Shown here piece after piece: positions 41,382 through 49,588 of a DNA stretch of 64,000 nucleotides (its first letter is position 1; each line of letters opens with the position of its first letter). The notes beneath the pieces are model-generated. The model did no database searches, was not told the origin of the DNA, and saw only the letters and a list, made by a program, of their open reading frames with translations. The position numbers and the translations under genes are program-made. Location of the stretch: sequence record NC_027349.1; one strand, given 5' to 3'. This stretch comes from Escherichia phage HY01.

Positions 41382-42371
41382 TCATAATTTACAGGATGAA
41401 CAATCTTCAGCTTTTGGAGTTTCTATTTCATAATCATCAGTACCAGAACCGTCGCGGGTATTATGATAATAGAAATTTTTTCCGCCAAAATACCAAAAGT
41501 ACAAAAGGTCATCAATCATTACAGACATTGGAACCTTTCCTTTTGGAAAAATCTGCGGGTCATAATATGTATTCGCTGAAGCTGATTGACATACCCATTT
41601 CAGCATAATAGCTACCTGCGTAAGATAAGGTTTATTACCTTTCTTAGCTAATTTCCATGTATAATCATAGAGGTCTATGTTATGTTCAATATTGGGCACG
41701 ACTTGATTAAAGGAACCCTCTTTTGATTCTTTAACCGAGACTGGTCCACGTGGAGGCTCGATGCCGTTTGTACTGTTAGAAACTTGGGAAGATGACTCAC
41801 ATGGCATAAGTGCTGATAATGTGCTATTACGGATGCCAAAGAGCTTAAGGTCTTCCCGCAGCTCCGACCAGTCACAAACGTATTTTGGAGCTGCGATTTG
41901 GTCAATCTTTTTATTGTACCAGTCGATAGGTAATTCGCCTCGAGACCAACGAGTGTCTGAATAATATTCGCAAGGTCCTTTTTCTTTGGCGAGCTTAATG
42001 GATGCTTTAATGAGCCCATACTGTAATCTCTCAAATAGTTCATGTGTTAAATCGTTAGCATCTTCATAAGAAGCAAAGTTACTTGCCAGCCAAGCTGCAT
42101 AGTTAGTAACACCTACGCCAAGGTTTCGACGCTTTTTAGCTTTTTCTGCTTCAGGAACTGGATATCCTTGGTAATCCAAAAGATTATCAAGAGCGCGAAC
42201 TTGAACTTCTGCCAATTCATTAATTTTATCTTGGTCTTGCCAATCGAAGTTATCTAGCACAAATGCAGAGAGAGTGCAGAGGCCCACTTCACCTTTGTTT
42301 TCAATAACTTGTATTGTTGTATACTCATCATCTTCGTAAAATTCATCTACAAATTCATAATCAATATTCAT
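41382..42371 (-). CDS. nrdA: Ribonucleotide reductase large subunit, C-terminal fragment (329 aa)
   Basis: Contains GEVGLCTLSAF class I RNR region and C-terminal Cys pair; own ATG overlapping HNH stop. Confidence 0.8.
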   Translation of the reverse strand: MNIDYEFVDEFYEDDEYTTIQVIENKGEVGLCTLSAFVLDNFDWQDQDKINELAEVQVRALDNLLDYQGYPVPEAEKAKKRRNLGVGVTNYAAWLASNFASYEDANDLTHELFERLQYGLIKASIKLAKEKGPCEYYSDTRWSRGELPIDWYNKKIDQIAAPKYVCDWSELREDLKLFGIRNSTLSALMPCESSSQVSNSTNGIEPPRGPVSVKESKEGSFNQVVPNIEHNIDLYDYTWKLAKKGNKPYLTQVAIMLKWVCQSASANTYYDPQIFPKGKVPMSVMIDDLLYFWYFGGKNFYYHNTRDGSGTDDYEIETPKAEDCSSCKL

Positions 42372-43071
42372 TTAATTCTTCTACCTTTTTTCGAGATATT
42401 CCTAGAGCTTTAGATGCTCGATGTATTGATTGATATTCTATACCGTTTATTTTTACAGCAATTAAGTTATGGGGTTTTAATCCCTTTGGATGAGGTTTAC
42501 TGACGTATTCTTGATTATCGTTTTCAGAGATATTATCAAGCTTTCGACACTTAAAGCCTTTATGTTGAGACCTTTTGCCTTTGCATACGGCCGACATTGC
42601 CGAAGCATTGAGTGAATGTAGTTCGCAAAATTCTCTTAGGCCTTTATGGATTTCTTCATGACCGTCCGGGAAAGTAAATACCCAAGTTGTTTGAAGTTTT
42701 TCTCTATGCTCGTCAGTTACCGGAATACCTTTGTTCCAAGCTGGTTTGCCTTTATTATTTTCAGATACAGAAATAGCCAATTTTCTTCTAAGCCACCCAT
42801 GGCGTTTATTGGTGTTCTTTCGTTCAATATTATCTTCAGAATAAACACACATCATATTAGCGGCAAATACCAATTTATGATTATCTGGATATATCTTTAC
42901 TAATAATTGATGAGCTATGTAATGCTCTTCGGGTGTCAAATCTACCAGGTTTTCCTTTGTATCAGAACCACCAATACACAGAGGTATAATATGGTGTGAT
43001 TCGGTATAGCAATCTAATTTTCTGTTCTTAGCTTTAGAAATAAGGTTATTGTAAATTTTAGAATAATCCAT
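42361..43071 (-). CDS. HNH homing endonuclease (236 aa) inserted within nrdA
   Basis: HNH motif ESHHIIPLCIGGSDTKENLVDLTPEEHYIAH; C-terminal HTH-like region. Confidence 0.8.
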   Translation of the reverse strand: MDYSKIYNNLISKAKNRKLDCYTESHHIIPLCIGGSDTKENLVDLTPEEHYIAHQLLVKIYPDNHKLVFAANMMCVYSEDNIERKNTNKRHGWLRRKLAISVSENNKGKPAWNKGIPVTDEHREKLQTTWVFTFPDGHEEIHKGLREFCELHSLNASAMSAVCKGKRSQHKGFKCRKLDNISENDNQEYVSKPHPKGLKPHNLIAVKINGIEYQSIHRASKALGISRKKVEELNEY

Positions 43072-43116
43072 AACTTTTCCTCTTGTTATGGATTATTTAT
43101 TAACGGTCTGTGTACT
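42361..43116 (-). mobile_element. Homing-endonuclease gene insertion splitting nrdA
   Basis: Interval between the conserved nrdA N- and C-parts, occupied almost entirely by the HNH ORF. Confidence 0.65.
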
Positions 43117-44550
43117 TTATTTGCTTTGAATTATACCGCCAGGATTAGCTTCATAAAACTTAGCTACATCCGACTTCTTAATTTTGATTAAACGGGTTTG
43201 TTGGCTATTCACATCATTTGTTGGAATAGCAATTTCACAGCACAAATTACTCTGACGAATAGGTGCTTTTTCACGAATAAACGGAGTATAGTTATTCGTA
43301 TTATCAATGAACTGCACATAAATCCTTGCTGTTCCTGATCGTTCAGTCATGAGTAGTTCAAACAGTTCACGTGCTTTAATACGCTTTTTACGAATATTAG
43401 GGTCTTTTTCTGCGGCTTCGTATAATTCACGGAAACGGTCTTGGTCTTTAAAATAAGAATAATAAAGCTCGCCACCCATTTCATGCGGACTGAACAAAGT
43501 AATGTAGTCGTTCTTTCCAAAACGTTCCATCATCAAATCATTCAGCTGGACGCCATAATCCATATGACGGATACGGTTTTCTTCTACGCCTTTGTTATTT
43601 TTCAAAACGAGAAGATTTTCAACTTCCAAATGCCAAATAGGATAATAAGCAGTAGCAGCGCCGCCACGAATTCCGCCCTGTGAACACGATTTAACAGCAG
43701 TCTGAAAATGTTTCCAAAAAGGAATAACACCAGTATGACGCACTTCACCTGTGCCAATCTTAGAACCTTCGGCACGAATCATACCAACGTTAATACCAAT
43801 TCCAGCGCGTTTGGAGATATATTCAACAATTGAAGCAGAAGCCTTATTGATAGACTTCAGCGAATCACCTGCCTCAATAACAACACATGAACTAAACTGC
43901 CGAGTTGGAGTACGACAACCAGCCATAATAGGAGTTGGCAATGAAATCTGTCGAGTAGATACTGCTTCATAAAAACGAATAACATGTTTTAATCTATCAA
44001 CAGGTTCATCTTGATGCAATGCCATTCCAATAGTCATAAATGCAAACTGTGGAGTTTCATAAATTTGACCGGTGGTTTTATCTTTAACTAGATATTTTTC
44101 TTTTAATTGCATCGCCCCGGAATAAGTAAATTCCATATCCCGCTCGTGCTTAATTTTTGATTCTAAAAATGTAATTTCTTCTGCTGAATATTTTGACAAC
44201 AGTTCAGGGTCGTATTTACCTTCATTTACACAGTAAGAAATATGGTCAATAAATGAACGTGGTTCATACTGACCGTAAACATGCTTACGAAGAGCGAACA
44301 TTAAACAGCGCGCAGCTACGTATTGATAATCAGGCTCTTCAACTGAAATAGAATTCGCAGCAGCCTTAATTACAATAGTTTGAATGTCATCAGTGGTCAT
44401 TCCATCACGGAGATATGATTTAATATTTTCATATAATTCATAAGGATCTACAGATGTTCCTTCAGCTGCCCAAGATAAAACTTTAATAATTTTTTGCGGG
44501 TCAAAGCTTTGAGAAACACCACTACTTTTGATAACATTAATTAATTGCAT
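43117..44550 (-). CDS. nrdA: Ribonucleotide reductase large subunit, N-terminal fragment (477 aa)
   Basis: ATP-cone N-terminus, class I RNR active-site region ending SNLCCEIAIPTND, then 31 non-conserved residues and stop. Confidence 0.85.
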   Translation of the reverse strand: MQLINVIKSSGVSQSFDPQKIIKVLSWAAEGTSVDPYELYENIKSYLRDGMTTDDIQTIVIKAAANSISVEEPDYQYVAARCLMFALRKHVYGQYEPRSFIDHISYCVNEGKYDPELLSKYSAEEITFLESKIKHERDMEFTYSGAMQLKEKYLVKDKTTGQIYETPQFAFMTIGMALHQDEPVDRLKHVIRFYEAVSTRQISLPTPIMAGCRTPTRQFSSCVVIEAGDSLKSINKASASIVEYISKRAGIGINVGMIRAEGSKIGTGEVRHTGVIPFWKHFQTAVKSCSQGGIRGGAATAYYPIWHLEVENLLVLKNNKGVEENRIRHMDYGVQLNDLMMERFGKNDYITLFSPHEMGGELYYSYFKDQDRFRELYEAAEKDPNIRKKRIKARELFELLMTERSGTARIYVQFIDNTNNYTPFIREKAPIRQSNLCCEIAIPTNDVNSQQTRLIKIKKSDVAKFYEANPGGIIQSK

Positions 44551-44867: not shown

Positions 44868-45084
44868 ATTGTTTTTCCGTTAAAACAGTAATATCATAAT
44901 AACAATCTGAAGAAGTTTTAACCGTAGAAATTTTATTATCAAAATACTCACGAGTCATTTTATGAGTATAATATTTTTTGCCATAAATTATAATAGGCTG
45001 ATTTGGTCCTGGAACTTCTAACTCGCTTGGGTTAGGAAGTGTAAAAAGAACTACACCAGAAGTATCTTTAAATCGTAAAATCAT
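44821..45084 (-). CDS. Hypothetical protein, 87 aa
   Basis: ORF; overlaps next ORF by 47 nt. Confidence 0.4.
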
Positions 45085-45107
45085 ATATCCTCACAATTAA
45101 TAATTAA

Positions 45108-45968
45108 TTACACCGCCATTTTTCCTTTAATAGGAGGGTGAGATACATAGTTGTTAAGAACAAAATTATGCGGCTTTGCGAATTGACTCAACCAAAATAC
45201 CTGTGATTCTGTGTCCCATTCATCAAATTCATCTGGAAATTTTAATTGTAATTCGCATAAATCCATAGGTTCACGACGTAAAATTTCTTTACATTGTTCT
45301 ACGTGATTCATATAGATATGAGTATTACCACCAGAAAATATCAAATCTCCTGGAATAAGATTACACATCTTAGCTACAATATGAACTAATGCAGCATATG
45401 ATGCAATGTTGAATGGCAAGCCCAAGAACACGTCAACACTTCTTTGATACCACTGCAAATCCAAATAGCCATTACGCACATTAAACTGATAGAACATATG
45501 ACAAGGCGGTAATGCCATATATTTAAGTTCAGCTGGATTCCATGCAGAAACAATTTGACGCCTATCATTCGGCAGTTTTTTAATACGATCAATAACTTCT
45601 ATAATTTGGTCTACACCGCCAAAATCACGCCATTGTTTTCCATAAATTGGACCAAGTTCACCACTATGATATCCTAAATCTTTTGCTTGATTTTCGTAAT
45701 TTTCATCCCAGACTGTTTTGCCTTGAATTAATGAATCATGTTGAATTAATCGTAAATCATTGACATTTGTGCTTCCCGATAAAAACCATATTAGCTCAGC
45801 AATGCAAGCTTTCCAGGCGAGCTTCTTAGTTGTTACTGCAGGAAAACCTTTAGTTAAATCCCAGCGTAATTTAGTACCGAACAAAGCAATTGTTCCTGTG
45901 CCCGTTCGGTCATCGGTTTCATAGCCATTTTCAAAAATGTCTTTAATTAAATCTTGGTATTGTTTCAT
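45108..45968 (-). CDS. td: Thymidylate synthase, uninterrupted (286 aa)
   Basis: Conserved TS motifs (PCH, catalytic Cys region); contiguous, no intron. Confidence 0.9.
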   Translation of the reverse strand: MKQYQDLIKDIFENGYETDDRTGTGTIALFGTKLRWDLTKGFPAVTTKKLAWKACIAELIWFLSGSTNVNDLRLIQHDSLIQGKTVWDENYENQAKDLGYHSGELGPIYGKQWRDFGGVDQIIEVIDRIKKLPNDRRQIVSAWNPAELKYMALPPCHMFYQFNVRNGYLDLQWYQRSVDVFLGLPFNIASYAALVHIVAKMCNLIPGDLIFSGGNTHIYMNHVEQCKEILRREPMDLCELQLKFPDEFDEWDTESQVFWLSQFAKPHNFVLNNYVSHPPIKGKMAV

Positions 45969-46013
45969 TTAGTACCTTATATAAATTATAATACATTTTA
46001 TGAAGCTAAATAA

Positions 46014-46361
46014 TCAATACGGTTTAGCATCAAATTTTCTTTCAATTTCAGGCGTGAAATATAATTCTTTACCACGCTTGGAAAAGCGACCAATAATATG
46101 ATAATTATTCTCATCAAACGTGATATTGCCAATATCCATAGCTTTCAACCAAATATCGATATTTCTATCCAGTTTTATATCAAAATTCCAATACGGAGAA
46201 CTATTACCGAAAATACTGCAAGCGGATTCAGTGAAACAACTGCTATAAATCTTGTCTTTAGGAACTACTAATTGATAGACGCCTTTAATAAACTGAGGAC
46301 CCTGCCATTTTGGCTGTTTCGCGCCTTTTTCTAATAGAATAGGGTAATAATTAAAGTTCAT
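46014..46361 (-). CDS. Hypothetical protein, 115 aa, between frd and td
   Basis: ORF filling a 414-bp frd-td spacer. Confidence 0.5.
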   Translation of the reverse strand: MNFNYYPILLEKGAKQPKWQGPQFIKGVYQLVVPKDKIYSSCFTESACSIFGNSSPYWNFDIKLDRNIDIWLKAMDIGNITFDENNYHIIGRFSKRGKELYFTPEIERKFDAKPY

Positions 46362-46381
46362 ATTTTCTGCCGCGCGTTATT

Positions 46382-46969
<588 letters not shown>

Positions 46970-47224
46970 TCAAAACCCCCTTTCAATAAACCATTCAGTG
47001 GCTTTATTAGCATCAAAGAATAATTCTTCATATGTCTTTTCTTTGTTTTCAAAAACTGTCACACAAACACGTTGACAGTCTCCGCAGTATTCTTCTGACA
47101 TGCTCAAAGCGTCAGAAAACATTTCATTAAATTCATTTAAATCAGGATTATGTAATGCATTAAAAATTGCATAATCGAATTCATCATTCATAAATTCAAA
47201 TACAAAAATCATATTACCTCCCAC
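46970..47224 (-). CDS. Hypothetical protein, 84 aa
   Basis: ORF. Confidence 0.45.
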   Translation of the reverse strand: MGGNMIFVFEFMNDEFDYAIFNALHNPDLNEFNEMFSDALSMSEEYCGDCQRVCVTVFENKEKTYEELFFDANKATEWFIERGF

Positions 47225-47568
47225 TGAAAAGGGTCAGAAGCATATCCGCTAGCTTTAATCATTTTAACTAAAGTTACCATGCCTTTGTTAACTGCTTGCG
47301 CAATTTCATTAAAAACTTCATCACTATCATCGTAAAGGTCATTAAAAAGTTCTAACACGTTCTTCTGAACTTTTAATTTACGGCCGACAATTTCGCCTAC
47401 AGTAAATTCGTTTCCGCCAAATCCAGCGTAAAATGTAATTACACCCATTAACTGGCTTTCGCGAGAATCTATGTCATGTGATAAATTAATAAAAGCCGTC
47501 CCAGGCGCGGTTTTAAGTCGACAACGAATTCTTACTTGGATAATTCCAGTTATATGAATGTCAGACAT
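47209..47568 (-). CDS. Hypothetical protein, 119 aa
   Basis: ORF. Confidence 0.45.
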   Translation of the reverse strand: MSDIHITGIIQVRIRCRLKTAPGTAFINLSHDIDSRESQLMGVITFYAGFGGNEFTVGEIVGRKLKVQKNVLELFNDLYDDSDEVFNEIAQAVNKGMVTLVKMIKASGYASDPFQWEVI

Positions 47569-47578
47569 AATATTTTCC

Positions 47579-47821
47579 TCAAACAGACTTTTTCACAATT
47601 TTCCAATCAGCTTTAAACTGTTCAACGTCAGAATGATAAATCCAAAATCCTGCGCTTTCTCCATCCTCATAAAGAGGGCATCCATCGCATTCATCTTCCC
47701 ATCCCATATCACGTAAAAGATGTTCAGCTTTTTCAACAAGTTCAGAATCTTTACCAATGATATTAAAATACCATTTACCTCTAACTTCTGAATCTTTAAT
47801 GCTCTGGCGTTGTAATCTCAT
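47579..47821 (-). CDS. Hypothetical protein, 80 aa
   Basis: ORF with GGAG SD and early-type promoter upstream. Confidence 0.45.
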   Translation of the reverse strand: MRLQRQSIKDSEVRGKWYFNIIGKDSELVEKAEHLLRDMGWEDECDGCPLYEDGESAGFWIYHSDVEQFKADWKIVKKSV

Positions 47822-48679: not shown

Positions 48680-49588
48680 TTAAAGGTCATTCAAAAGGTC
48701 ATCCAGGTCCGTGTCATCAGCACTAGATGAACTGCCAGAGCTTGAGCTCATAAAATCATCTTCAGTTTTTGTTTTGAAGTCATCAACATTAAATGCATCC
48801 AAATCATCAGCAACTTTATCGGCTTTCTTAGCGGCAGTTGCTGCGGCACCACCCATAGCAGCAGTTCCCATAACTTGACTGAACTTAGTGCTCAGTTCTT
48901 CAAACGATTTGAATTTATCTTTAGAAGTCATTTCAGAAAGGTCAACCATTTGTTCGAACAGTTCTTTCTGGAAAGATTCATCATCAATGTTTGGAATCGC
49001 AGATTGATTCAGGAATTTAGATTCGTCGTAGTTACTAAAACCAGAAACTTGTTTAACTTTCAGTACAAAGTTAGCACCTTCCCACGGACAAGTTACATCA
49101 ACCGGAGTTTCACCCATTTCAACATCAACTGCAATCATTGCATTGATTTTATCCCAGATTTTCTTACCGAAACGGTATTTAAATACTTTACCTTCATTTT
49201 CTGGAGCAGCTGGGTCTTTTACTACAAGAATGTTAGCCCAGTAAGAAGTTTTACGTTTAACAAGACCGTACTCTTTATTGTCAGTATTATACAAATCATT
49301 TTTACTGATGTACTGACATACTGGGCAAGAATCGTAATCACCGTAGGTAGATGAGCATGTTTCGATATACCATTTACCATTTTTCTTGAAACCGTGATTT
49401 ACAAGAAGTGCGAATGGTGCTTGTTCATCATTTTTAGACGGAAGAAAACGAATTACTGCTTGACCGTTACCCGCATTATCGAGTTTCAGTTTCCACTCGC
49501 CTTTATCTTCAGAAGAAAAACCACCTTTATTTCCAGCCAGTTTAGCCATTTGTGCAGCGAGTTCAGCAGTAGATTTACGTTTAAACAT
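48680..49588 (-). CDS. 32: Single-stranded DNA-binding protein gp32 (302 aa)
   Basis: Sequence as T4 gp32; acidic C-terminal tail; autoregulatory leader upstream. Confidence 0.95.

Follow-up and report, generated by a model that had tools for sequence, protein, structure and literature searches.

A selectively maintained small gene between frd and td of Escherichia phage HY01, and the probable origin of the T4 frd/td overlap by deletion

In Escherichia phage HY01 the genes for dihydrofolate reductase (frd) and thymidylate synthase (td) are separated by a complete open reading frame of 115 codons, here called ORF115. We consider it quite probable that ORF115 is a genuine, selectively maintained accessory gene of the early/middle region which descended together with the frd-td module, and that the overlap of the two genes in T4 is the product of a 417-bp deletion. 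Its family appears to be confined to T4-like phages of enterobacteria, where it occupies the interval between frd and td at every locus examined; some lineages would have kept two tandem paralogues, Tequatrovirus and Jiaodavirus one, T4 and the RB69-type Mosigvirus none. The first-pass annotation had seen a small gene inserted into a normally tight operon. That the gene is extra with respect to T4, genuine and complete has stood; its insertion into a normally tight operon has not, since in Tequatrovirus records with the ORF outnumber those with a contiguous T4-type junction by about 357 to 35, the same family occurs in other genera and the composition is not foreign.

The window, i.e., the whole stretch of 64,000 nucleotides that was analysed (sequence record NC_027349.1), holds the following features in and around the interval:

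46382-46966, minus strand: frd (dihydrofolate reductase, 194 aa), stop codon TGA at 46382-46384
46362-46381, minus strand: spacer between frd and ORF115, 20 nt, AATAACGCGCGGCAGAAAAT, containing the CGCGCG patch
46014-46361, minus strand: ORF115, ATG to TGA, 115 aa, beginning MNFNYYPILLEKGAKQ
45969-46013, minus strand: spacer between ORF115 and td, 45 nt
45108-45968, minus strand: td (thymidylate synthase, 286 aa), without intron, start codon ATG at 45966-45968
46380-46388, minus strand: left copy of TAAATGAAA, comprising the last frd codon, TGA and 2 nt beyond
45963-45971, minus strand: right copy of TAAATGAAA, comprising TAA, the td ATG and AAA
46371-46376: CGCGCG
45985-45990: TATAAT
45975-45978: AAGG, Shine-Dalgarno sequence of td

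The gene order on the minus strand is gene 32 (48680-49588), small frd.x ORFs, frd, ORF115, td, nrdA.2, nrdA.1 and nrdA. ORF115 has the orientation of frd and starts 20 nt downstream of it. From the frd stop to the td start there are 413 nt (45969-46381), not the 414 bp first reported for this spacer; the complete minus-strand frame of 115 codons, the CGCGCG patch and the TATAAT-like element had all been placed correctly. Over 45900-46450 the window shows 100% identity with Escherichia phage PEC04 (Tequatrovirus hy01), and the ORF115 protein is identical to PEC04_0169 (AKN44656), a "hypothetical protein" in the PEC04 annotation, and to the HY01 protein YP_009148673.

That ORF115 is a real gene maintained by selection is confirmed by comparison of its sequences. 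In a set of ten Tequatrovirus plus recombinant Mosigvirus copies, nearly every pair with at least 8 differences has a dN/dS of 0.02-0.08, with dS reaching 1.0; the outlier (0.21) is a close pair, L012 and L016, which differ at 10 positions. The ORFs of the window and of T2 differ at 9 of 348 nt, and 8 of these differences are synonymous, 1 non-synonymous.

The distribution of the gene is broad. A megablast search (at least 80% of a 551-bp query) retrieved about 357 phage records with the ORF, T2, T6, RB27, RB32 and AR1 among them, and about 360 Tequatrovirus genomes list ORF115 as a hypothetical protein. The protein itself was found by tblastn in 574 phage records, 213 of which lie below 60% identity and belong to other genera; these are phages of Klebsiella, Enterobacter, Citrobacter, Erwinia, Serratia, Salmonella and Raoultella. 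RB32ORF229c (ABI95053) and its orthologues in T2, T6, RB27, AR1, HY01 and PEC04 are the same gene in the same position, with 97-100% protein identity; from most of these copies the window differs by G13 in place of D13 and, upstream, by CGCGCG in place of CGCGTG. Beyond Tequatrovirus, at least 8 other T4-like genera have relatives of 27-62% identity in the frd-td interval, in many cases beside a tandem paralogue. Family members in this interval come from Kanagawavirus, Jiaodavirus, Moonvirus, Marfavirus, Roskildevirus, Winklervirus-type phages, Pectobacterium phage PM2 and metagenomic lineages.

The loci inspected were those of the Mosigvirus recombinants PHB12 and JQD51, Kanagawavirus IME523, Jiaodavirus RoM12a, Roskildevirus Cronus, Moonvirus Merlin, Marfavirus VAC36, 14 IMG/VR contigs and two metagenomic contigs. 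A family member stands between frd and td in all of these loci, at least 25 in number, and follows frd directly except in Cronus, where a paralogue comes first. In Jiaodavirus the ORF even overlaps both frd and td through start/stop overlaps. At eight loci the ORF is 99, 93, 62, 44, 32, 30, 27 and 30% identical to that of the window, and Frd, in the same order, 86, 94, 45, 45, 44, 44, 45 and 43%; over the same set identities thus extend from 99% to 27% for the ORF, from 94% to 43% for Frd and from 90% to 69% for Td. By these identities, ORF115 and Frd have diverged to a comparable extent, as one would expect from descent of the ORF together with the module. The conserved position beside frd and td may, of course, just reflect the general collinearity of T4-like genomes.

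Recombination complicates the picture. PHB12, a Mosigvirus, has a Frd and an ORF of the Tequatrovirus type (94% and 93% identical to those of the window, respectively) next to a Td that is 99% identical to that of RB69, which implies a crossover between ORF and td. Consistent with a crossover at this site, the ORF-td spacers of PHB12 and JQD51 are about 30 nt shorter than that of the window. The few Mosigvirus genomes with the ORF are, as judged from such mosaics, recombinants. Since T-even genomes recombine as freely as PHB12 demonstrates, presence and absence of the ORF follow no simple tree. Judged by protein identity (85.6% to the Frd of T4 and T2, 94-95% to that of RB32 and PHB12), the frd of the window is an allele of the RB32/PHB12 type. 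The td group I intron with I-TevI occurs in T4 and in several phages with ORF115 (KarlGJung, L014), and is absent from the window. As KarlGJung carries both the ORF and the intron, presence of the ORF is independent of that of the intron.

In some phages the interval harbours a second ORF of 113-144 aa: Merlin (gp259), VAC36 (UEP19396), IME523 (gp190), Cronus (AWD90399) and the metagenomic L029 and L030. Its products are of similar size and have the motifs QKKW, HGxY and GRFxKxGS in common with the ORF115 family. Profile-profile comparison of the two families (hhalign) gave a probability of 99.2% and an E of 1.5e-19, searches with HMMs bear this out in both directions, and Foldseek on BFVD retrieved the 144-aa neighbour in Cronus independently. 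Unlike ORF115, the paralogue carries some 20 additional residues after QKKW and is absent from Tequatrovirus; no further copy was found in the window or in a 12-kb region of T4. The interval appears to have held two related genes, of which Tequatrovirus and Jiaodavirus would have kept one and T4 none.

How T4 came to its overlap can be read from the junctions. In the T4 reference (NC_000866) frd extends over 145109-145690 and td ends at 145112; the genes overlap by the 4 nt ATGA and the ORF is missing, just as the first-pass annotation had stated. That ORF115 is something extra holds for the comparison with T4; it does not hold for the T-even phages at large, since T2, T6 and RB32 carry it. 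When the window, T4 and T2 are aligned, T4 differs by a clean gap of 417 bp. This is exactly the distance between the two copies of TAAATGAAA, which bound the extra DNA. If one copy is removed together with everything in between, the exact junction of T4 and RB69, TATAAATGAAACAATAC, results; for T4 the sequence so rebuilt reads TATAAATGAAACAATACC. The frd and td genes of RB69 likewise overlap by 4 nt, in the letters found in T4, GTGTATAAATGAAACAATACC. Both phages have the flanking genes of the window and, at the junction, its letters, TATAAATGA joined to AACAATAC, but lack the 417 bp that in the window separate the TAAATGAAA copies. The ATGA overlap of T4 would then have arisen from a 417-bp deletion between these copies and would not be the ground state.

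The repeat need not surprise. The window contains TAAATGAAA 9 times where 3.3 copies are expected, a number reached in 0 of 100 shuffles. With its succession of stop, start and Lys codon, TAAATGAAA is a common gene-boundary motif and offers microhomology for a deletion. Its frequency at gene boundaries also means that two flanking copies do not require a target-site duplication. At the interval boundaries of more distant genera no 9-bp repeat was found. The repeat had been seen before: the GenBank record of RB32 (DQ904452) already annotates the ORF with the note "flanked by 9 bp repeat".

The direction of the change, loss and not gain, is the best reading by parsimony over the outgroups. Fused junctions of the T4 type (contiguous) were counted in 35 records, many of which are T4 isolates or laboratory variants, and those of the RB69 type in 134. 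With only 58% identity of the RB69 Frd to those of T4 and the window, the fused junctions of T4 and RB69 sit in very different frd backgrounds; the direction is, for this reason, not proven. Either the same repeat-mediated deletion occurred two times, or the fused junction is an old polymorphism. It is also conceivable that the common ancestor of Tequatrovirus and Mosigvirus was fused and that the ORF was re-acquired later, and flanking repeats of 9 bp could also have been left by a target-site duplication, which counts against loss.

The product of ORF115 is a protein of 13.6 kDa with a pI of 8.8; in most members of the family the pI is 7.7-9.4. By profile comparison it belongs to PHROG 1928, a phage protein family without assigned function (E 8.9e-35, 120 bits; residues 4-111 against positions 2-125 of 126). 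An exhaustive HMMER search found only 22 proteins among 1.84 billion representatives, 20 of them single-domain proteins of 95-116 aa; the two long matches are spurious, P0021 being a repetitive reverse-transcriptase fragment and P0023 having no family match. All named members are "hypothetical proteins" of T4-like enterobacterial phages. In the alignment of 23 sequences (A3), Q16, W19, G27, G91, K95 and G97 are invariant, and the most conserved motifs are LLExDxKQ(K/P)KW and IGRFxKxGxxxxF, complemented by (H/K)G(I/V)Y and GN. If a frd-td interval family of Tevenvirinae is defined by about 95-119 aa, the motifs LLExDxKQxKW, HGxY and IGRFxKxGxxxxF and a gene between frd and td, the protein of the window fits in size, motifs and position.

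Searches for known domains remained fruitless. Pfam gave no match to the protein of the window at E up to 1 and no recurring family among the 23 members, only 9 unrelated weak hits to single members (e.g., PF18431 RNAse_A_bac, E 0.14). PDB sequence and profile searches yielded no match, PADLOC nothing meaningful for the 23 members (one of them matched PDLC03259 MTase_II with an E of 0.019), and a literature search by locus tags, accession numbers, PHROG number and general terms found no paper that discusses ORF115.

The predicted structure is more informative. AlphaFold2, which with 4 sequences gave a poor model (pLDDT 53), reached a pLDDT of 91.8 and a pTM of 0.84 with the 23-sequence alignment, and this model was used. 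It comprises strands at residues 6-12, 27-34, 38-40, 48-50 and 62-64, a helix at 68-77 and strands at 80-82, 86-96 and 99-104. ORF115 is thus predicted, with high confidence, to be a small beta-rich domain with one helix. The homology and structure searches that had been proposed for the protein thus led to PHROG 1928 and to a confident fold for which the structure search found no significant structural neighbour and no nuclease among the matches. The weak matches were mostly OB folds: RecO, HIN, Teb1, LEF-3, Cdc13, S1, RPA14/32, Stn1-Ten1, SSB, CspA and PriB. An OB fold is a closed barrel of five beta-strands with a helix between the third and the fourth, and the order of elements in the secondary structure of the model is compatible with it. 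The predicted succession of strands, one helix and a long beta-hairpin is in keeping with that of OB-fold domains such as SSB, RPA, S1, CspA and the N-terminal domain of RecO. Like OB-fold domains that bind nucleic acids, ORF115 is basic and has conserved aromatic and basic residues in two loops. Its similarity to solved OB-fold domains is not significant, and on the strength of the model we call it OB-fold-like and do not file it as an OB fold.

What such a protein might do can only be proposed with low confidence. Our tentative suggestion is an accessory protein that would bind a ligand or nucleic acid and be expressed together with the genes for nucleotide precursors. It would be a small beta-barrel of OB-fold-like shape and mildly basic character, and its conserved loops with basic and aromatic residues (KQxKW, GRFxKxG) would provide the surface that contacts nucleic acid or a protein partner from the nucleotide-precursor machinery. 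In the laboratory ORF115 must be dispensable, since T4 and RB69 lack it.

Instead of nucleic acid, the protein could bind Frd and/or Td or the dNTP-synthesising complex and act as an adaptor or regulator of the thymidylate module. The strict position between frd and td at every locus, even where Frd identity has fallen to about 44%, the joint travel of frd and ORF in the PHB12 recombinant and the start/stop overlaps with both genes in Jiaodavirus speak in favour of this idea. T4 and the 134 RB69-type phages, however, have functional frd and td without ORF115, and adjacency is weak evidence in genomes that are collinear in general; we consider such a role unlikely. A speculative variant goes further and makes the family, with its tandem paralogue, an unrecognised third component of thymidylate synthesis, with a new OB-like fold, that physically couples or regulates dihydrofolate reductase and thymidylate synthase or tethers both to DNA or the replisome. 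It is a long shot. If it were true, T4 and RB69, the model phages for this pathway, would belong to the minority in which the component has been lost.

Alternatively, ORF115 might serve host takeover or counter-defence, with a value that depends on the host strain and, hence, repeated loss and reshuffling. This role would suit a gene that is small, dispensable, restricted to certain lineages and located in the prereplicative region, that is polymorphic in its presence and whose tandem paralogues come and go; the same pattern is typical of phage accessory genes in general. A dN/dS of about 0.05 and the slow divergence within Tequatrovirus, however, are not the signature of an arms race, and PADLOC gave no match (its models being defence and not anti-defence proteins). 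The proposal has little probability in its favour.

As to origin, the first reading of the locus, a small gene inserted into a tight operon, deserves a fair hearing. Spelled out, it would make the ORF a recently inserted mobile or foreign cassette, be it a moron or a free-standing gene of the homing-endonuclease type, which would have duplicated a 9-bp target in an ancestral frd/td overlap. Identical 9-bp direct repeats do flank the extra 417 bp, some T-even phages have the ORF and others lack it, the segment of frd and ORF has moved between genera by recombination (PHB12), and records of the BASEL collection, L011 included, call the ORF a "putative homing endonuclease". The T-even seg and mob homing endonuclease genes are likewise small, variably present and wedged among genes of nucleotide metabolism (PMC2988022). 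Unlike these, ORF115 has no nuclease motif, family or fold: a test for HNH, GIY-YIG, LAGLIDADG, His-Cys box and PD-(D/E)xK found neither a catalytic motif nor a nuclease-family match, the 23 members gave no HNH, GIY-YIG, LAGLIDADG or other meaningful Pfam match, and the predicted fold resembles no nuclease of the PDB. The BASEL label has to be rejected. Nor is the occurrence sporadic as that of seg and mob genes; although polymorphic in Tequatrovirus and Mosigvirus, the ORF keeps its position across genera. Its relatives occupy the same interval in at least 8 other genera, diverged to a degree similar to Frd and without the 9-bp repeat, and the repeat itself, being a common boundary motif, does not call for a duplication event. 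Finally, the deviation in local GC or codon usage that had been envisaged does not exist. The GC content of the ORF is 0.333 (0.363 in the window), its GC3 0.30 and its codon-adaptation index, built from neighbouring genes, 0.66, all of which fall into the range of the neighbours; a foreign origin is rejected on composition. The insertion is largely refuted by the synteny of the outgroups, and we regard it as very improbable.

The idea that ORF115 is a fortuitous reading frame, lying in a spacer without coding function or in an RNA element, can draw on its small size and is practically without any chance of being correct: a chance frame is ruled out by the substitution pattern (dN/dS 0.02-0.08), and the profile family of full-length members (about 100-116 aa), the confident AlphaFold2 model, the insignificant RNA folding of the two flanking spacers (z-scores +1.8 and -1.3) and the lack of any Rfam family at gathering score point the same way. 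A match to Rfam Yar_1, a Drosophila lncRNA, at 46259-46330 on the plus strand, i.e., inside the ORF and opposite to it, has 26.9 bits against a gathering score of 50 and is regarded as due to chance.

We return to ORF115 as a genuine member of the module and to its expression. It would be read with frd on the prereplicative transcript; co-transcription can be inferred because no terminator separates the two, none having been found in 45000-47600. The 20 nt upstream of its start codon (46362-46381) are likely its ribosome-binding region, as can be inferred from their position. The CGCGCG patch is, by comparison with the relatives, just part of the stretch upstream of the start codon and not a conserved element; they read CGCGTGGCGG, CACGTGGCGG or GCTACTGGCGG there, and mostly end in GCGTGGCGGAAAAT.

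The second spacer may matter for td. In T4 and RB69, td has neither a Shine-Dalgarno sequence of its own nor a promoter-like element and must use the frd message, whereas td of the window is preceded by AAGG and the spacer with TATAAT. Having its own Shine-Dalgarno sequence, td would not be translationally coupled to frd as in T4. The spacer may also add a putative middle promoter of the MotA type. In T4 middle promoters a good -10 element, TAtaaT, is preceded at a distance of 12 ± 1 bp by a MotA box, (a/t)(a/t)(a/t)TGCTTtA (PMC2988021). In the window, TTTAGCTTCA (46001-46010) matches 9 of 10 positions of the box and is followed, after 10 nt, by a perfect TATAAT. The one mismatch and the spacing of 10 bp, which is outside the consensus, weaken the case; a -10 element at 12 bp from TTTAGCTTCA would read TAATTT. 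The promoter-like part falls into the roughly 30 nt that are absent from the PHB12 and JQD51 spacers, and a scan for sigma-70 promoters found no enrichment over shuffles.

Some neighbouring loci of the window are worth mentioning in their own right. Within 41382-44550 (minus strand) nrdA consists of two pieces: an N-terminal one at 43117-44550 (477 aa), residues 1-449 of which are 99.6% identical to T4 NrdA, and a C-terminal one at 41382-42371 (329 aa), which has an ATG of its own. The two pieces flank an ORF of 236 aa (42361-43071) with an HNH-like motif, SHHIIP..GG.D..EN.V.LT.EEH, annotated in PEC04 as "putative homing endonuclease"; the Rfam scan of the whole window revealed no group I intron. 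By its sequence, this arrangement suggests a ribonucleotide reductase of the "genes-in-pieces" kind, interrupted close to the NLCxEI region of the active site by a free-standing endonuclease gene. A comparable case is the mobE-split nrdA of Aeromonas phage Aeh1. Between frd.1 (47579-47821) and frd, the minus strand has two more ORFs, one of 119 aa at 47209-47568 and one of 84 aa, if counted from GTG, at 46970-47224, for which PEC04 annotates 243 nt instead. In T4 the gap between frd.1 and frd measures 71 nt only, and T2 and RB32 have one ORF there; the region directly upstream of frd is, to judge from these comparisons, a second indel hot spot.

Public annotations of the frd-td interval are unreliable. 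In JQD51 (L007, PV204681) the product names are shifted by one gene, with the result that ORF115 figures as "dihydrofolate reductase" and an nrdA.2-like ORF as "thymidylate synthase". In SF2-1 (H10, PQ571308) the match covers three features, one of which bears the name "putative glucose-1-phosphate adenylyltransferase" where other records have "hypothetical protein". Early T2 entries (AY310907, LC348380) leave ORF115 unannotated.

ORF115 is an ordinary accessory gene and already known; it is annotated in hundreds of genomes, and even its repeat is on record. What changes is the T4-centred expectation: the textbook ATGA overlap would be a derived deletion scar common to T4 and the RB69-type phages, and most T4-like phages of enterobacteria would have one or two small genes of a single uncharacterised family between the two enzymes. 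Strong purifying selection and a confident fold without a significant structural neighbour make this family a reasonable, and cheap, target for functional work.
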